Shown piece by piece: positions 324 to 8,072 of a stretch of 13,418 nt of DNA. Each line of letters begins with the position of its first letter. Position 1 is the first letter of the stretch. Origin of the DNA: Clostridiales bacterium GWB2_37_7. GTDB taxonomy: Bacteria > Bacillota > Clostridia > Lutisporales > Lutisporaceae. Made by a program: the position numbers and the translations under genes. The DNA lies in the NCBI GenBank assembly GCA_001797185.1, contig MGOS01000111.1, positions 11,646 to 25,063 on the forward strand, written 5' to 3'. Under the pieces are notes generated by a model. That model was given only the letters and a program-made list of their open reading frames with translations, was not told where the DNA came from and did not search any database.

Positions 324-3300
324 TTACATCTTCTCAACACCCTTTGTCAGCACGTCAGTCATAACCACTAGTTTTTCATTCAGATCACCGAGCTTAAGGA
401 TCGCCTGACCTATTTTATCTTCACCCTTCATGAGCTTATTTTTCAAGAAGATATCTTTGATCTCCTTCCACCTTGCAGCATCCTGTTCGTTGAGACGTCC
501 GACAATTTCCTTCCACTTAAGCATATTTGCTTCTGCTCCTTTTGTTAAGGTTTGGGAGTCATTTTCATAGGAATTCTCAACCAGCTGCATTAGCTCCGTC
601 TCATCCATTAAGGGTACAATTCTTTCTGCGATTTTGTTCATATTTCTGTAAGAGCCTTGAAGCTTGAAAGGCGGCTCTTTTCTATATTCATCAGCTTGAG
701 CTGCGGAGTAGATGTACTCCATATTAATATCCAGCACTACATCGCGCACCAGAATAAGCTTTTGAATAACAGCAACAAACTCATTTATCTCCTCAACGGA
801 GTATTGACTTTCGAAATCCACACCTTCGCGTTCTCCATTCTGTGCGATATCAATCATTATATATATATCCTTTTGACTTCTGGTTGTAAGCTTGTTTAGA
901 ATCGGATTGGAGGTCAGACAGTTTTCGATATAGCTCAGCTTAAATGCATTCTCATTTTCCCGGAGCATATCTCCAAGGTTATATACATCTGCTCTATTTG
1001 CAAGCATGTCAGGAATTTGGAACTTTTCACCACTTTCGGTGTAAGGATTTCCTGCCATAACAACAGCAAGCTTCTTGCCCCTAAGGTCATAGGTTTGCCC
1101 TACCCCATTATAAACACCTTCAATTTTTCTCTGCCCGTCACACAGAGGAATAAACTTTTGCAGGAACTCCGGGCTGCAGTGTTGGATATCATCGATATAG
1201 ATCATTACATTATTGCCCATTTTGAAAGCTAAGTTCAGCTTTCGCAGTTCTTCCCTTGCTCCTGCATTTTTCGCCATAGCAGGATCCAGTGAGGTTACAT
1301 CATTGCCAATGGCCGGGCCATTGACCTTGACAAGAAAAATGCCAAGACGATTTGCAATATACTCTACAAGAGTCGTTTTCCCATAGCCGGGAGGGGATAT
1401 CAGCAGAAGCATTCCCATTAAGTCCGTTCGCTTATCCTCTCCTGTCGTACCGATCTGTTTTGCCAGATTGTCACCAATCAATGGCAGATACACCTTGTCA
1501 ATTAGTCGATTTCTTACAAAAGAGGATAACACATCTGGCTTAAACTCTTCCAAGCGGATTTCATCTCTAAACCTCTGTGATAGGTCCTTCTTTAAAGTTT
1601 GAAACTCAATAAAGTCACGGACAACAGTTCTGTCATATTCCTTTAGCTTTTTCATAAATTCCGTATAGGAAAGGGTATACGCTCCCCCTTTAAAGCTTGG
1701 ATGGCTGCCAGTCAACTCTTTAATGATCACTTTTGTCTTTCTGTTAATGACTTTAGGGCTGCCACCGCCATCGCATTTATCAACAATCAACATTATGACG
1801 ACTTCATCCATTACGTCAAAGCCCTCATTTAAGCTTGTTTCCTTAAAGAATGCTTTCAGCCATTCCCTGACTAGATAATATGCACCTTCCAAATCTTCTT
1901 CGAAAGCCTTAAGTGACTCTGCAAAAATATCTTGAGCCTTATTCGCTTTCATATGTTGCATGAACTTGCTTTTAGCTTCATCAGCTTCTAGGCTTGCAAC
2001 AAAGGAACCATCACGCATTAATTCCTTGCAAAGATATTCTGAGGCTTCAGAAACAAAGCTCTTATCAATGAATATATAGTTACTGAAAGCCTGATTCATT
2101 TCTGCTGCAATGGTAGAAATGTAGTCTTTTAATCCAGGCTCAGTCTTGAAATACACGCTAATTTTTGCCAGCTCTTTCAACCGTCTGCAGAACTTATCCT
2201 TCATTTCCGAGCCGACTATACAATACCAGTAAAGCTTGGCAATTGCTCTTGATGAAGGACTATAGGTCAAAAGATCAATATTCATATGCAAATCTAAAAG
2301 AACCTTTAGTATTCTATAACAATCTGCATCATGAACACCTTTTGTATATCCCTCTTGATAACGAGGCTCCATAAATTTGCGAATAAACTCCAAAAGCTGG
2401 TCTTCTGTGTATGAATAGAGTGTATCAAGCGTAACGATATCCTTATTTAAAGCGGCTTCAAATATCTTATAAACAAGATACTCTGCGCGGTAAATTTCCT
2501 TGGATTCAGAAAGTACATCCTGATCCCACAAGTAGCGAAACTTTGCCAGTGTATCCGACATTACTTTTTCCCAGAAATCAGTTCCCGATATATGAAAATA
2601 TAGTTCCCCATCTTTTTGTACCATTGATAGCTCAAGCTGTTGAGTATTGTAGGAAAAATAATGTCTGCCAAATTTAATGACATCTTTTCCATGAACAAAA
2701 AGCTCCTGTCTGTCTTTTAGTTGACGGACAGCCTCTTCTTTAATGATCTTTAGCCTGCCCTCTATCTCATCAGCTTTTACACTGTCTCCCAACACCTTCA
2801 GTTGATCTATGATATCTCTTACCTTCTCAATCATGAGATCTGATGCAAGGTAACCGTTAATCTCATTAATGGTATGAAAGCCTTGAAGTCGGCTTGTGAT
2901 TCCGGTCAGTATCCGCTCAGATGTATTAAAAAGAGCAGTAAGCTTTTTATTTCGTTTTTCCAAGACCAGCTGTTTTTTCGCTACAAAGGCGTTATAAAGC
3001 TCTTCCCGCTTTTCATTGAACTTTACAATGAACTCTTCAAAATCAGCAAATTTGCCTTCCAACTCTTCAATCTGCACCATGATCTTGTTCAAATATGAAT
3101 CACATTTCTCTGTGCTGTCTGCAATGTCAAGATAATTGGCTGCTGCTTGGTCCAGGAGCTTCATTTGGGACTGGAATTGTGCAATGCCTTCTTTCTCAGA
3201 AAGCTCTGCCATACGGTTTTTAAGCTTAGCTTTTGCCAGATTTAATAATGAATAAATGGCAGAAATATTTTCTATAATCTCAGTTGTTTTCGTTGGATCT

Positions 3301-5240
3301 TCAATTTTGAAATTGCTTACAATATCAATGAGAAGTTCAAGATCCTGAGAGGATTTGGCCATCTCATTCTCAAGCTCTTTACCTGCAGAAGTCTTTGTAA
3401 TACAAGGTATTTGGCTCTGCTGACTGTCAACTCGTTCAGCATAAGGCTTAAGACCTTCAGGCACCAGCAAAAATTCAGTACATCTTTGAGTAAGCTTTTC
3501 ATTTTTTTCTTTTACTTTCTCTTCTAAAGATTCAACAAGCGCTAAATTTGTATAACGCAAAGTCTTCAGAGAGGCAATTTCTCCCCTTAAAGACCTTAAA
3601 TCTGCTAGAATCTGCACATAGCCTTCAATACTGTCAAAAGTACCATATTCAGCATTCTTTAACAGCACCTGTGCCTTTTCATCTACCTCTTTAATTTGCT
3701 TTTCAGTTGAACGCCTTATTCTTGTAACCTTTTCGAACTCAGCAACTGCTGAAGTGGCAGCCTCTTTTATGCTGCTAAGCACTGCCTTCAAGTTGAAGAC
3801 TTCCACTTTGTCCAGCCAATAATAAGAGTCCATAATGCGCTCCGTGTCTTTAACAATGTCCAGATAAATGCTTGTATAGCTCTCCCCTTTTTGAATAAGA
3901 TTATATACAACCTTGCAATCTGCCATACAGTGAACAATTTCTTTATTGCCTATTTTATATAGAATTGAGTCGCTTTTATTCTCAACTGTATAGCTTTCTC
4001 CTACATATGGAGTTTGCCAAATTTGTATGGTGTGGTTCTTACGAGGCTCATCCTCTCCCTTAAAAATCACCATTTCACCATTCTTAAAGTGTGAGTATCC
4101 TCCGCAAATTATTGGTATTTCTAAAGACTGTTCAATGATATTGTATGTATAAATAAGATATATGCCCGTTTCCATGTTGTAGAAAATGTATTGAAAATCC
4201 TCTCCATTTGGGGCTTCTATTCGCTGCTCAAAAACAAACCCTTCACAGGGCACGTCAAAGAGCTTATACTCACCACTTTGCAGATAATAGCCCTTGGGGA
4301 AGATAAGTCCATGATTATCCGGAAGCAGAACACATGAATCCTTTATCGCATCTATACGAACAACCATCTGAAGCTTTTCATTAAATATGATATAGCGGTA
4401 CTCCTTCTCCCTGTAAGGAAGAATCTTCAAGATTATCAGATTTCCTACCAGAGCATAATATATTTCAGCATCATCAAGAGTCTGGTCCATATCTTCCACA
4501 GGCTCCGAATAGATGCCTTTGCCGGTATCTGTGTTATTCTCCACCTTTATTGTAAGGTCTCCGCCTAAGGTTTCCACAAAGACCCTGTCTTTAATCGAGA
4601 TATGGGGATGTCTGCCCTCCCGATGGTCTTCCCTTTTAACTCTAGCCCAATCAAGCTCGCTTTGTTCCTTCAGTCTTACCTCATGGTCACTCCTGTTGTC
4701 TACGTAGGAAAGCTTTCCATCCTTCATAAGCCATTTAAAGGCTTTGATGTCGAAGGGGCTCTTTCCGGTCTGAAATACCATGTAAAGATAAGGACCAATG
4801 ATTGTAAACTTTGCAAAGAACGTATTTTTATAGTACTTATACAACTCCTTGAAGTCGTTCATAAATTGGTCATTGCAAATAAGCTCTAAGGATTGCTTAT
4901 GAAATGAACCGTCCTTGTATTCATAGATGGAAAAGACGTCAGAAAGCTCAACAGAAGTTTTCAATCCCATATACACGTTATAACCGAAAATAAACAAAGC
5001 TCCCACGGGAGCCATGTCTCGTGGGACGCAGTTGTTTTCAGTAATGATCTTTTCACTGCCGAGTAGGGTTGTCTCAATTGAACCAAACACGCCTCTTCTG
5101 GAACTATTTAATTTATCGAGCTTATCTTTTAGGTCACAGCCAAGTCTGTCGAGTCTGCTCTTGATTAATTCATACGTGCCGTTTTCTATACTTCCGACAG
5201 GGTTTTGCCCGCCTTGTTCAGTCATTTTTAATTCACCCAC
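324..5240 (-). CDS. Giant (1638 aa) multidomain protein with a MoxR/AAA_5-type AAA+ ATPase domain near the C-terminus. It also has a long central coiled-coil segment and an N-terminal beta-rich region of unknown function.
   Basis: One uninterrupted 4.9-kb ORF on the minus strand. Walker A is LLLISPPGYGKTTL (encoded around nt 1375-1400), Walker B is VMIYIDDIQH (nt ~1185-1205), and a sensor motif VVMAGNPYTE follows. These fit MoxR/dynein-like AAA_5 ATPases (GPPGxGKT ... hhhDE ... ATxNP). A long heptad-like K/E/L-rich stretch (aa ~480-800) indicates coiled coil. The start may be GTG at 5240 (SD GAGGTG 9 nt upstream) or the in-frame ATG at 5225 (MTEQ...). The gene lies 17 nt downstream of the flotillin stop, so it is probably co-transcribed. 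Confidence 0.85.
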   Translation of the reverse strand: MGELKMTEQGGQNPVGSIENGTYELIKSRLDRLGCDLKDKLDKLNSSRRGVFGSIETTLLGSEKIITENNCVPRDMAPVGALFIFGYNVYMGLKTSVELSDVFSIYEYKDGSFHKQSLELICNDQFMNDFKELYKYYKNTFFAKFTIIGPYLYMVFQTGKSPFDIKAFKWLMKDGKLSYVDNRSDHEVRLKEQSELDWARVKREDHREGRHPHISIKDRVFVETLGGDLTIKVENNTDTGKGIYSEPVEDMDQTLDDAEIYYALVGNLIILKILPYREKEYRYIIFNEKLQMVVRIDAIKDSCVLLPDNHGLIFPKGYYLQSGEYKLFDVPCEGFVFEQRIEAPNGEDFQYIFYNMETGIYLIYTYNIIEQSLEIPIICGGYSHFKNGEMVIFKGEDEPRKNHTIQIWQTPYVGESYTVENKSDSILYKIGNKEIVHCMADCKVVYNLIQKGESYTSIYLDIVKDTERIMDSYYWLDKVEVFNLKAVLSSIKEAATSAVAEFEKVTRIRRSTEKQIKEVDEKAQVLLKNAEYGTFDSIEGYVQILADLRSLRGEIASLKTLRYTNLALVESLEEKVKEKNEKLTQRCTEFLLVPEGLKPYAERVDSQQSQIPCITKTSAGKELENEMAKSSQDLELLIDIVSNFKIEDPTKTTEIIENISAIYSLLNLAKAKLKNRMAELSEKEGIAQFQSQMKLLDQAAANYLDIADSTEKCDSYLNKIMVQIEELEGKFADFEEFIVKFNEKREELYNAFVAKKQLVLEKRNKKLTALFNTSERILTGITSRLQGFHTINEINGYLASDLMIEKVRDIIDQLKVLGDSVKADEIEGRLKIIKEEAVRQLKDRQELFVHGKDVIKFGRHYFSYNTQQLELSMVQKDGELYFHISGTDFWEKVMSDTLAKFRYLWDQDVLSESKEIYRAEYLVYKIFEAALNKDIVTLDTLYSYTEDQLLEFIRKFMEPRYQEGYTKGVHDADCYRILKVLLDLHMNIDLLTYSPSSRAIAKLYWYCIVGSEMKDKFCRRLKELAKISVYFKTEPGLKDYISTIAAEMNQAFSNYIFIDKSFVSEASEYLCKELMRDGSFVASLEADEAKSKFMQHMKANKAQDIFAESLKAFEEDLEGAYYLVREWLKAFFKETSLNEGFDVMDEVVIMLIVDKCDGGGSPKVINRKTKVIIKELTGSHPSFKGGAYTLSYTEFMKKLKEYDRTVVRDFIEFQTLKKDLSQRFRDEIRLEEFKPDVLSSFVRNRLIDKVYLPLIGDNLAKQIGTTGEDKRTDLMGMLLLISPPGYGKTTLVEYIANRLGIFLVKVNGPAIGNDVTSLDPAMAKNAGAREELRKLNLAFKMGNNVMIYIDDIQHCSPEFLQKFIPLCDGQRKIEGVYNGVGQTYDLRGKKLAVVMAGNPYTESGEKFQIPDMLANRADVYNLGDMLRENENAFKLSYIENCLTSNPILNKLTTRSQKDIYIMIDIAQNGEREGVDFESQYSVEEINEFVAVIQKLILVRDVVLDINMEYIYSAAQADEYRKEPPFKLQGSYRNMNKIAERIVPLMDETELMQLVENSYENDSQTLTKGAEANMLKWKEIVGRLNEQDAARWKEIKDIFLKNKLMKGEDKIGQAILKLGDLNEKLVVMTDVLTKGVEKM

Positions 5241-5257
5241 AGCTCACTACACCTCAT

Positions 5258-7375
5258 TTACTCGTTACTATTCATTTGTTTTGCAAGAAAGCTAGCCGGC
5301 TCATTGGCAAAGCCCGCCTTTTCTGCAGTTTCCAGTAGCTTTACAAGTGCAGGCTTTTCTGATGAATCCGCATACTTCATTGCTTTATGAATAGCAGCTG
5401 AAATTGATAGATTTTTCAAGTCCTCTGAAGTCAGGTTGAATTTTGAAGTCAGTTGTTCCAACTGTGACTTGAAATAATCACCATCACCTGTTATAAAGGT
5501 ATTCTTGATATCACTTAATACCTCACTGTTCTTCACCATACGGTCAACGGATTTGCCTTGGGTAATCGCACCGACGATTTTGTCAAAGAACATTGTCTCT
5601 CCTCCAACAATATCAATAGATGCTGACTTCAAAGCTTCACTTATAACAGAGGCTTGGGCGTCTGCTATATCTTTTTGAATATTTATTTGAGCAAGTTCGA
5701 TTTCCTTCTCTTTATCAAGCTTAAGCTTAAATTCTTCATGACCTCTTCCTGCTTCATCAAGCGCCTTCATACTGGTAGCCTTTTTCGCAATGCCTTCTGC
5801 TTCGGCGTGATATTTTTTGGACATGATATCAACCTCAACAGATCCTGATTTTTCTCTTACAATTACTTTGGCTTCTTCACCCTTAGCTTCCGCCAGGGCT
5901 TTTATTTCGATAGCCTTCGCTTCAGCCTGCGCTGTAGCCTCCAATACTCTTGCCTTTGAGCTGCCTTCCTTCTCTATAGCTGTCGCCTTTGTCTCAATGA
6001 CACGAGCTTCTGCCAAACCGTTAGTTGCTGACTGCACAACTTGAGCATCCGCAAGGATTTTGATTGCTTCTGCTTCCTTTTCTGAAGCTTTCAGCTTGGC
6101 CTCAGACTCAATCACTCTTTGCTGTGCTGCTCTTTCAGCCACTTGCTTTGTTGCCTCTGCATTCTGAACCTCTACAATCAGATTGGACTCTGCTTCTTCC
6201 TGTGCCTTCTTTAAAGCTGCTGCCTTTTGACGTTCCGCTTCAGCAATTACCCTTGTATCTTTAATCTTCTCTTCTTCAATTACTACATCCTTCTCAACTG
6301 CCACACGTTCACGGATAACTGTCTGAATGTTTTTCTTCTCTTCCTCCAGAGTTTTTTCTTTATCAATCTCTGCAAGGGCTACCAATTTTTCTTTATCAAC
6401 TTTCTCTAACAATCTTTTCTTATCAACTCGTTCTGTTTCAACAACCTCTGTACTCTCCTTGGATTTCTGGGCTACAACAATCTGTCTTTGCTTGTTTTCT
6501 TCCGCAATGGCAATATCCTCATCAACTTTGATACGAGCCATTTCAGCCTTTAGCCGCTCTTCTTGAGAAACTTTATCAGTCTCCGCCTTCTCTCTTGCTC
6601 TGATAATTGCGATTTCTCTCTGCTGTCTAGCTTCTGCTTCTTGATGCTGTTTCTCAAGCTCAAGAATAGCCTCACTTGCTACCACATCCTGCTGCTTGAT
6701 GGTTTTTTCCTTGTTTCGCTCAATCTGATTTGCAAGAATCAATTGCTGAGAGGTTAGTTCGGTAATTTTTTTGATACCCTCTGCATCCAGGATATTATTG
6801 GCATTCAGCTTATTTATATCAGTTTGCTCTAAATAATCAATAGCAGCATCATCTAGAACGTAACCATTCAAATCAGTGCCGATAATTTGAAGAATCTCAC
6901 TTTTAAACTTCTCTCTATCGGTGTATAGTTCAACGAAATCAAACTTCTTACCTACAGTCTTCAATGCCTCGGAGAATTTTGCATCGAAGAATTCCATCAG
7001 TGTGCCCGGATCTGAAGCCTTTTGGCATCCCAAGGATTGAGCTACCTTCAGTACGTCCTCTCTGGTCTGGTTGACTCTGACGAAAAATGCAACTCTTATA
7101 TCTGCTCTCATGTTATCCTTACAGATAAGTCCGTCTTTGCCTTCTCTGGAAATCTCAACTCTTTTTACTGAAATATCCATGATTTCTGCTCTGTGTAAAA
7201 TAGGTATCACTAACATGCCGCCAAAGGAAACCATCTGACCTCCTACGCCATTTCTTACGATTACCTTACTTTGTTCTACTTTTTTGTAGAATTTAGCTAT
7301 CAAGGAAATTAATCCTATAACGATTAATACTAAAACGCCAGCAGTTATTAATGTTACTTGTGTCATGTAAGCCAT
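5258..7375 (-). CDS. Flotillin-like SPFH/band-7 domain protein (YqiK/FloT type), 705 aa
   Basis: It has an N-terminal TM helix (LITAGVLVLIVIGLISLIAKFY) followed by a PHB/SPFH domain (VIVRNGVGGQMVSF...RADIRVAFFVRV). A very long E/A/K/Q-rich coiled coil with EA-repeat flotillin character (AEAEAKAIEIKALAEAKGEEAKV) follows. Its start codon overlaps the upstream NfeD gene (ATGGCTTACATGA), indicating translational coupling. Confidence 0.9.
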   Translation of the reverse strand: MAYMTQVTLITAGVLVLIVIGLISLIAKFYKKVEQSKVIVRNGVGGQMVSFGGMLVIPILHRAEIMDISVKRVEISREGKDGLICKDNMRADIRVAFFVRVNQTREDVLKVAQSLGCQKASDPGTLMEFFDAKFSEALKTVGKKFDFVELYTDREKFKSEILQIIGTDLNGYVLDDAAIDYLEQTDINKLNANNILDAEGIKKITELTSQQLILANQIERNKEKTIKQQDVVASEAILELEKQHQEAEARQQREIAIIRAREKAETDKVSQEERLKAEMARIKVDEDIAIAEENKQRQIVVAQKSKESTEVVETERVDKKRLLEKVDKEKLVALAEIDKEKTLEEEKKNIQTVIRERVAVEKDVVIEEEKIKDTRVIAEAERQKAAALKKAQEEAESNLIVEVQNAEATKQVAERAAQQRVIESEAKLKASEKEAEAIKILADAQVVQSATNGLAEARVIETKATAIEKEGSSKARVLEATAQAEAKAIEIKALAEAKGEEAKVIVREKSGSVEVDIMSKKYHAEAEGIAKKATSMKALDEAGRGHEEFKLKLDKEKEIELAQINIQKDIADAQASVISEALKSASIDIVGGETMFFDKIVGAITQGKSVDRMVKNSEVLSDIKNTFITGDGDYFKSQLEQLTSKFNLTSEDLKNLSISAAIHKAMKYADSSEKPALVKLLETAEKAGFANEPASFLAKQMNSNE

Positions 7376-8001
7376 TTGTCAATCACTCCTTCTAGTTTTG
7401 TAATTAAGTAAAAGTCTTTTTCTTCATCTTTTTTCAAGACCAGAACCTCATCTCCCTTTTGAAGCTCTTCGTCCTTTATCGTTTTAACGTTGATAATGAT
7501 TGGACTGCCATCTCTCTTTATCTCCACTTGCCCCAAACGGCCAAATGTCATATCGCAAAGAAGTATTCCTCGCCTGCCTTCAACAATTTCTTGCTCAAAC
7601 TCAGATTTGGTCCCCTTCCTGAATGCTTTTTCCAAGGGACTTAAGATTGCTTTTGTTATCAATGCACTTATTATTAAACTTGGAAGCATAAATATACCTG
7701 CAACGATCCCCCCTGTCTTAAAGGGCAGCAAGTGCATAGCCATTGACAAAACCCAAAAAACTAGAATGATAACGCTGATAACAAATCCTATTGGAATTCG
7801 ACCTATTTTAAAAAATATCATTATGCTATGCAAAGGATCTGAAATAGCATCCACATCAGCATCCACGTCTATGTCAATATCCAAGGAAGACAGATCAAGA
7901 GCGCCAATGGTTACAAACAGCCAATACAAAACAACCAAGCCCAACAAAGTAGTAGGAATAATATTTACACCCTCAACTGCAGTCGTAAAAAGCTCGTTCA
8001 T
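7363..8001 (-). CDS. NfeD-like membrane protein (YqiJ type) encoded upstream of flotillin
   Basis: It has several hydrophobic helices (LLGLVVLYWLFVTIGAL; IGFVISVIILVFWVLSMAMHLL; GIVAGIFMLPSLIISALI). A C-terminal OB-fold-like soluble domain follows (GRRGILLCDMTFGRLGQVEIKRDGSPIIINVKT...GDEVLVLKKD), as is typical of NfeD short homologues partnered with SPFH proteins. The RBS is strong (AAAGGAGAAACGAT before the ATG at 8001). Confidence 0.85.
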   Translation of the reverse strand: MNELFTTAVEGVNIIPTTLLGLVVLYWLFVTIGALDLSSLDIDIDVDADVDAISDPLHSIMIFFKIGRIPIGFVISVIILVFWVLSMAMHLLPFKTGGIVAGIFMLPSLIISALITKAILSPLEKAFRKGTKSEFEQEIVEGRRGILLCDMTFGRLGQVEIKRDGSPIIINVKTIKDEELQKGDEVLVLKKDEEKDFYLITKLEGVIDKWLT

Positions 8002-8043: not shown

Positions 8044-8072
8044 ATTATAGCATAATTAGGAAATTCTTACAA
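8044..8072 (-). promoter_or_regulatory. Candidate sigma-A promoter for the NfeD-flotillin-AAA+ operon (minus strand: -35 TTGTAA, 17-nt spacer, -10 TATAAT)
   Basis: Plus-strand ATTATA at 8044-8049 reads TATAAT on the minus strand. Plus-strand TTACAA at 8067-8072 reads TTGTAA on the minus strand. The spacing is 17 nt, and the site lies ~45 nt upstream of the NfeD ATG/RBS. Confidence 0.35.

Follow-up and report, generated by a model that had tools for sequence, protein, structure and literature searches.

A giant MoxR-like AAA+ ATPase encoded beside a flotillin-like gene in Clostridiales bacterium GWB2_37_7: architecture, family and possible role

MoxR-family ATPases are normally small, single-module proteins of ~300–500 aa, whereas the protein encoded at this locus of Clostridiales bacterium GWB2_37_7 has 1633–1638 aa. 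What might so large a relative of MoxR do in the cell, and with which partner does it work? An earlier note on this DNA had read the protein as an orphan MoxR-type ATPase without a VWA-domain partner, had placed a long coiled coil reminiscent of SMC and dynamin-like proteins upstream of the ATPase module, and had suggested that the whole might be a fused or novel effector class. In the following, the window is the whole stretch of 13,418 nucleotides that was analysed.

The gene and its family

The giant ATPase is encoded by a single minus-strand ORF of 1638 codons, counted from a GTG at window position 5240 (Table 1). It is a genuine gene, and GenBank contains a protein of this organism that matches its product at 100% identity. 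The identical NCBI protein has 1633 aa, as it begins five codons downstream with the ATG at 5225. As the GTG is preceded, 9 nt upstream, by the Shine-Dalgarno sequence GAGGTG, both codons are possible starts. ORF residue numbers are counted here from the GTG and are 5 higher than those of the AlphaFold model of the N-terminal part, which count from the ATG; the models were run on fragments, the input being window fragments aligned to full-length proteins from protein searches.

The label "orphan" does not survive a look at the databases. More than 5,000 database proteins share the architecture of Pfam DUF3686, DUF7902 and a C-terminal AAA+ module, and NCBI names them "DNA repair ATPase". Full-length homologues number 5,150–5,698, and those listed cover 97–100% of the query; there are 1,333 clusters among 50%-identity representatives, and colinearity extends over the full length down to ~24–30% identity. 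Relatives are found in at least 580 species, including members of the Clostridia, Desulfobacterales, Planctomycetota, Bacteroidota, Verrucomicrobiota and Kiritimatiellota, and Proteus, Pseudomonas, Vibrio, Streptomyces and Deinococcus join them through records of the plasmid collection. Matches to the family occur in 13 of 72,556 plasmid records and in none of 50,697 phage records.

Judged by its sequence, the giant ATPase is thus a member of a large and widespread family without established function. This bears on the earlier note in two ways. The suggestion of a novel effector class gives way to a known family, DUF3686 plus DUF7902 plus AAA, whose operon context has been described (PMC11237479). 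The note had also held that a match to a known large family with established function would overturn its reading; the match to a large family was found, but this family has no established function. Full-text searches found no paper that connects flotillin or SPFH proteins to DUF3686, PF12458 or "DNA repair ATPase", or that characterises a family member, and a paper on SPFH proteins of P. aeruginosa (PMC13086221) makes no mention of such an ATPase.

Table 1. Features of the giant ATPase gene, its product and its operon (window positions)
Feature	Position	Strand	Remarks
Promoter-like site TTGTAA-17-TATAAT, extended -10 TG	8044..8072	-	43 nt upstream of first operon gene; consensus match only
YqiJ/YuaF (NfeD-like) type small membrane protein	7363..8001	-	212 aa; 3–4 predicted TM segments
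Flotillin-like partner	5258..7375	-	705 aa; Pfam Band_7 E 4.5e-10; N-terminal TM predicted
Giant AAA+ protein gene	324..5240	-	1638 codons (GTG 5240) or 1633 aa (ATG 5225)
N-terminal long helix before beta domain	5085..5195	-	ORF aa 16-52; AlphaFold N-part model H11-47
DUF3686, full match	3819-5135	-	aa 36-474
Divergent beta-propeller-like domain (predicted)	4014..5069	-	ORF aa ~58-409, ~25 strands; DUF3686 core
All-helical stalk (predicted)	2700..3965	-	ORF aa ~426-847; ~14 helices of 10–51 residues, AlphaFold
DUF7902 within stalk	3207-3455	-	aa 596-678
Small beta domain	2565..2681	-	ORF aa 854-892; AlphaFold strands 849-887 (ATG numbering)
All-alpha domain	1836..2489	-	ORF aa 918-1135
Pre-AAA region	1452..1733	-	ORF aa 1170-1263: beta hairpin, long helix, linker helix into ATPase core
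AAA+ alpha/beta core	978..1409	-	ORF aa 1278-1421
Walker A GYGKT (P-loop)	1374-1388	-	ORF aa 1285-1289
Walker B DD	1188-1193	-	
Pre-sensor-1 beta hairpin	1086-1127	-	predicted strands 268-273 and 276-281 of model
Sensor-1 Asn	1047-1049	-	
Invariant Arg at arginine-finger position	993-995	-	
Lid + C-terminal helical extension	330..953	-	ORF aa 1430-1637
Stop codon of giant ATPase gene	324-326	-	

A single AAA+ module at the end of a long polypeptide

The earlier note was right to place an ATPase module at the C-terminal end of the giant polypeptide, and the Walker-like motifs from which it argued do fall in a true AAA+ core, as indicated by both profile searches and AlphaFold. Family alignments show no variation in SPPGYGKTT, in DDIQH, in the sensor-1 Asn or in an Arg that immediately precedes beta5, and GNPYTE...PDMLANR is a further family-invariant motif of the C-terminal module. 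Beta2 of the core is followed by a conserved loop (NGPAIGNDVTSLDP; over ~18 residues, NGPAIGNDVTSLDPAMAKNA), which could correspond to a helix-2 insert but is not predicted as a hairpin. A pre-sensor-1 hairpin is predicted between the Walker B and sensor-1 strands of the model, which is not an experimental structure. The near-invariant loop EPPFKLQGSYRNM (window 639-677) belongs to the lid and C-terminal extension. The same alignments show that Walker B is an invariant DD and not the usual DE, a substitution that possibly makes for a slow, switch-like ATPase, not a processive remodeller.

The assignment to MoxR/AAA_5 stands, with its weight on the fold. Pfam AAA_5 is matched over 124 of 139 profile positions but barely above its cut-off (24.1–26.1 bits versus 22), PF00004 scores higher but over a shorter stretch (profile positions 1-72 of 131 only), and neither AAA_3 nor CbbQ_C has a Pfam match in the giant ATPase. 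Sequence matches in the PDB are limited to ~38 residues around the P-loop. In comparisons of the model, the core and lid are of the helix-2-insert/pre-sensor-2-insert type and lie closest to MoxR-class structures, in particular to the CbbQ/NorQ-type ATPases (PDB 6l1q, 9qh4), although at an identity of only 15–17%; further points of likeness are the AAA_5 match and the predicted pre-sensor-1 hairpin. "MoxR-like" therefore describes the predicted fold, and at that level the term holds. The differences from the CbbQ/NorQ proteins are considerable: the window protein is ~5 times larger, places ~1,270 residues before the core, has DD in place of DE, and lacks AAA_3, CbbQ_C and a VWA/MIDAS partner. 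We also considered the classic AAA clade (p97, Vps4, FtsH); the partial PF00004 match, the PDB matches confined to the P-loop and the predicted pre-sensor-1 hairpin argue against it. Midasin and the dynein heavy chains concatenate six AAA modules in an intramolecular ring, whereas the window protein, with its single module, has to oligomerise, and it has neither a MIDAS nor a microtubule-binding domain.

Ahead of the core, PF12458 (DUF3686) is matched over its entire length (598 bits versus a cut-off of 25, profile positions 1-448 of 448) and PF25472 (DUF7902) centrally (83.7 bits versus 26). In the AlphaFold model, with its ATG numbering, residues 53-404 form a beta-rich domain and residues 421-842 are helical. 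Foldseek matches the predicted beta-rich domain to beta-propellers with a probability of up to 1.0. Of the coiled coil that the earlier note had drawn at aa ~480-800, the helical character remains and the length does not: the predicted region is all-helical, but it is a bundle of ~14 helices resembling three-helix bundles and spectrin repeats. A heptad scan, which is a crude and weak check and not a validated coiled-coil predictor, picks out only short heptad-like stretches there. These short and medium helices, together with the short heptad-like stretches, suggest that the ~420-residue region is a helical-bundle stalk and not an SMC-like continuous coiled coil. The likeness to SMC and dynamin proteins finds no support at the motif level either, as the Pfam searches match no ABC-type head or dynamin GTPase domain and the protein has a single AAA+ P-loop.

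Between the stalk and the core, the all-alpha domain contains the family-conserved motif EGYTKGVHDAD (window 2322-2354), invariant at G, H and the last D, and a further invariant residue, His at ORF aa 1180, sits in the beta hairpin of the pre-AAA region. The ~1,270 residues N-terminal to the core are strictly conserved together with it, which suggests that they form a built-in adaptor. No transmembrane segment is predicted in the whole protein. The giant ATPase is a soluble cytoplasmic protein with one MoxR/CbbQ-like AAA+ module and a helical C-terminal extension.

A near-obligate link to flotillin and YqiJ-like genes

The ATPase gene is the third cistron of an operon that also encodes, in order, a YqiJ-like and a flotillin-like protein. 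The flotillin gene, on the same strand, is the immediate upstream neighbour, with its stop 17–32 nt before the ATPase start, and is itself overlapped at its start, by 13 nt, by the 3' end of the YqiJ-like gene. In the flotillin-like protein an N-terminal TM helix is followed by an SPFH/Band_7 domain, by a long helical stretch of charged character and by a conserved C-terminal region; the protein is very highly conserved across phyla. The YqiJ_N match of the 212-aa membrane protein is weak and below the Pfam cut-off (E 0.012; 16.3 versus 23 bits). The site upstream of the operon (8044..8072) is promoter-like by consensus match only, such sites being no commoner in the region than expected by chance.

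In the 60 related loci whose upstream DNA is long enough, a same-strand flotillin-like gene lies upstream of the ATPase in 53 and a homologue of the YqiJ-like gene occupies the equivalent position in 52. The linkage of the ATPase to these two genes is near-obligate, and this conserved set of partners is a second reason why the protein is no orphan. The linkage to PspA is recurrent, and CesT/Tir-like genes are added in the Bacteroidota: PspA is found in 15 of the 60 loci and CesT_Tir_1 in 12, and PspA is the sole recurrent family among 114 flanking ORFs from 80 related loci. In the Bacteroidota the order is XRE-HTH | CesT_Tir_1 - PspA - YqiJ-like - flotillin - ATPase; plasmid pQBR103 has PspA ... 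glutathionylspermidine synthase - hypothetical 217 aa - SPFH - ATPase. The flotillin and ATPase genes of some loci have small DUF559 or PD-(D/E)XK nuclease-like ORFs between them. The absence of a VWA gene, which the earlier note had reported, extends beyond this DNA, as there is none in the window and none among the recurrent neighbours of the 80 related loci.

An operon of this type, with flotillin, YqiJ, an AAA+ ATPase and in some cases PspA and CesT, has been described computationally by Ravi et al. 2024 in mSystems (PMC11237479), who propose a PspA-linked role in membrane dynamics and report that "abbreviated operons" without PspA are widely distributed. The CesT/Tir-PspA dyad is absent from the 13.4-kb window, which makes this locus an abbreviated form, and PspA is also missing from most loci outside the Bacteroidota; the Bacteroidota homologues have the full CesT_Tir_1-PspA-YqiJ-flotillin-ATPase order. 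The ATPase of that paper has an N-terminal beta-propeller plus a coiled-coil/helical region, as found in our model of the window protein too. From the matching architecture and context, and not from common accession numbers, we infer that the two belong to one family. The paper itself names no family, assigns no AAA+ clade and offers neither a structure nor an experiment. The operon type is thus already in the comparative-genomics literature, and the window adds an example and structural detail but no discovery.

Possible role and competing explanations

Of the earlier reading, the part that genome context supports best is flotillin as functional partner. We lean, with some reserve, towards the ATPase being an ATP-driven remodeller of the flotillin membrane scaffold or of PspA assemblies in envelope stress, acting within its three-gene operon. 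Like other single-module AAA+ proteins it would assemble into a ring, probably a hexamer. The flotillin/YqiJ scaffold would recruit it to the membrane on the cytoplasmic side, probably through the propeller and the stalk, and ATP hydrolysis would then remodel, assemble or disassemble the scaffold, PspA polymers of ESCRT-III type, or client proteins that the scaffold retains, in response to membrane or envelope stress. Flotillin would in this way play the part that a VWA protein plays for ordinary MoxR ATPases. The interaction with flotillin, the ring and the ATPase activity itself are deduced here from architecture and context.

The database name suggests another function, that of a DNA repair ATPase acting on DNA in the manner of RuvB or another repair motor. 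It rests on the Pfam description of DUF3686 ("ATPase involved in DNA repair"), on the NCBI name, and on weak RuvB_N and RuvB matches near Walker A; these matches, however, span only ~45 residues at the P-loop, and their scores of 23.5 and 20.8 bits fall far below the curated cut-offs, which are 282 and 299. Pfam searches find no DNA-binding or nuclease domain in the protein, the genes conserved around it encode membrane proteins and PspA and include none for repair, and literature searches found no paper backing the name. We give this function almost no credence, and the name, without support from domain content or genome context, is misleading. A canonical MoxR chaperone whose VWA/MIDAS protein is encoded elsewhere, with the flotillin linkage reflecting co-regulation only, deserves slightly more consideration. 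CbbQ and NorQ, whose AAA+ fold is the closest, use the VWA proteins CbbO and NorD, and the window shows only 13.4 kb of the genome. Around the 80 related loci, however, PspA alone recurs, the ~1,270 conserved N-terminal residues look like an adaptor already built in, and the flotillin linkage is near-obligate across phyla, so that a distant VWA partner seems very unlikely.

Rather less improbable, though still unlikely, is an anti-phage or conflict system in which the giant NTPase senses infection and the flotillin/YqiJ membrane protein is the effector. Defence systems commonly pair large multi-domain NTPases with adjacent membrane proteins; the nuclease-like ORFs of some loci and the occasional carriage on megaplasmids such as pQBR103 also fit. 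Against this, PADLOC-DB 2.0 gave no significant match for the three proteins, with nothing for flotillin or the YqiJ-like protein and only ~16-bit P-loop matches to IetA and mad8 for the ATPase, and the family is absent from the phage records searched and rare in the plasmid records. The three proteins are highly conserved and their gene order is fixed across phyla, unlike fast-diversifying defence genes, and the additional genes that recur beside them (PspA, CesT-like, DUF350 and polyamine enzymes) are those of envelope stress. We rate about equally low the possibility of an SMC- or dynamin-like mechanochemical protein, in which a coiled coil relays nucleotide-driven motion to tether, fuse or cut membranes. 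A long helical region does separate a globular N-terminal domain from the NTPase, the gene context is membrane-associated, and in Foldseek the order of propeller and then helices is that of coat- or IFT-type proteins; TM-scores to these proteins, however, are merely 0.06–0.13. The NTPase is an AAA+ module, neither an ABC-type SMC head nor a dynamin GTPase, the helices are of the short and medium lengths seen in three-helix bundles and spectrin repeats, and the protein has no hinge, paddle-like membrane-binding elements or TM segments.

For a remodeller of flotillin scaffolds there are precedents. HflK/C forms a cage around FtsH. Structures of this cage are summarised in PMC13086221, and FtsH works physically with the SPFH membrane scaffolds HflK/C and YbbK (QmcA), the latter also having an NfeD partner (PMC2636767). 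FtsH is, however, a membrane-anchored protease of the classic AAA clade, whereas the window protein is soluble, MoxR-like in its predicted fold and without a protease domain; and the ATPase and flotillin genes of the window share an operon, which ftsH and hflKC do not. The functional analogy with Vps4 and ESCRT-III, and with the AAA+ proteins to which some bacterial PspA/Snf7 genes are linked, is that of an AAA+ ring remodelling a membrane-bound polymer: a relative of ESCRT-III (PMC11237479), PspA is operon-linked to ATPases of the window type in the Bacteroidota and on pQBR103. Yet Vps4 is small, belongs to the classic AAA clade and has an MIT domain, and the obligate neighbour of the window-type ATPase is flotillin, not PspA.

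A bolder proposal, which we put forward only tentatively, is that the protein might be the missing energy-consuming component of flotillin microdomains: a ring-forming MoxR-like machine, docked by propeller and stalk on a flotillin/NfeD cage, that would assemble, open or disassemble the cage and pass on or extract PspA or clients. If true, it would be a "Vps4 for SPFH scaffolds" whose layout, a propeller and then helices, recalls membrane-coat proteins, and a MoxR-like AAA+ fold could be wired to an SPFH scaffold in place of a VWA protein. For the control and role of bacterial flotillin assemblies, the conserved ATPase, co-operonic with flotillin in hundreds of species, provides an experimental handle.

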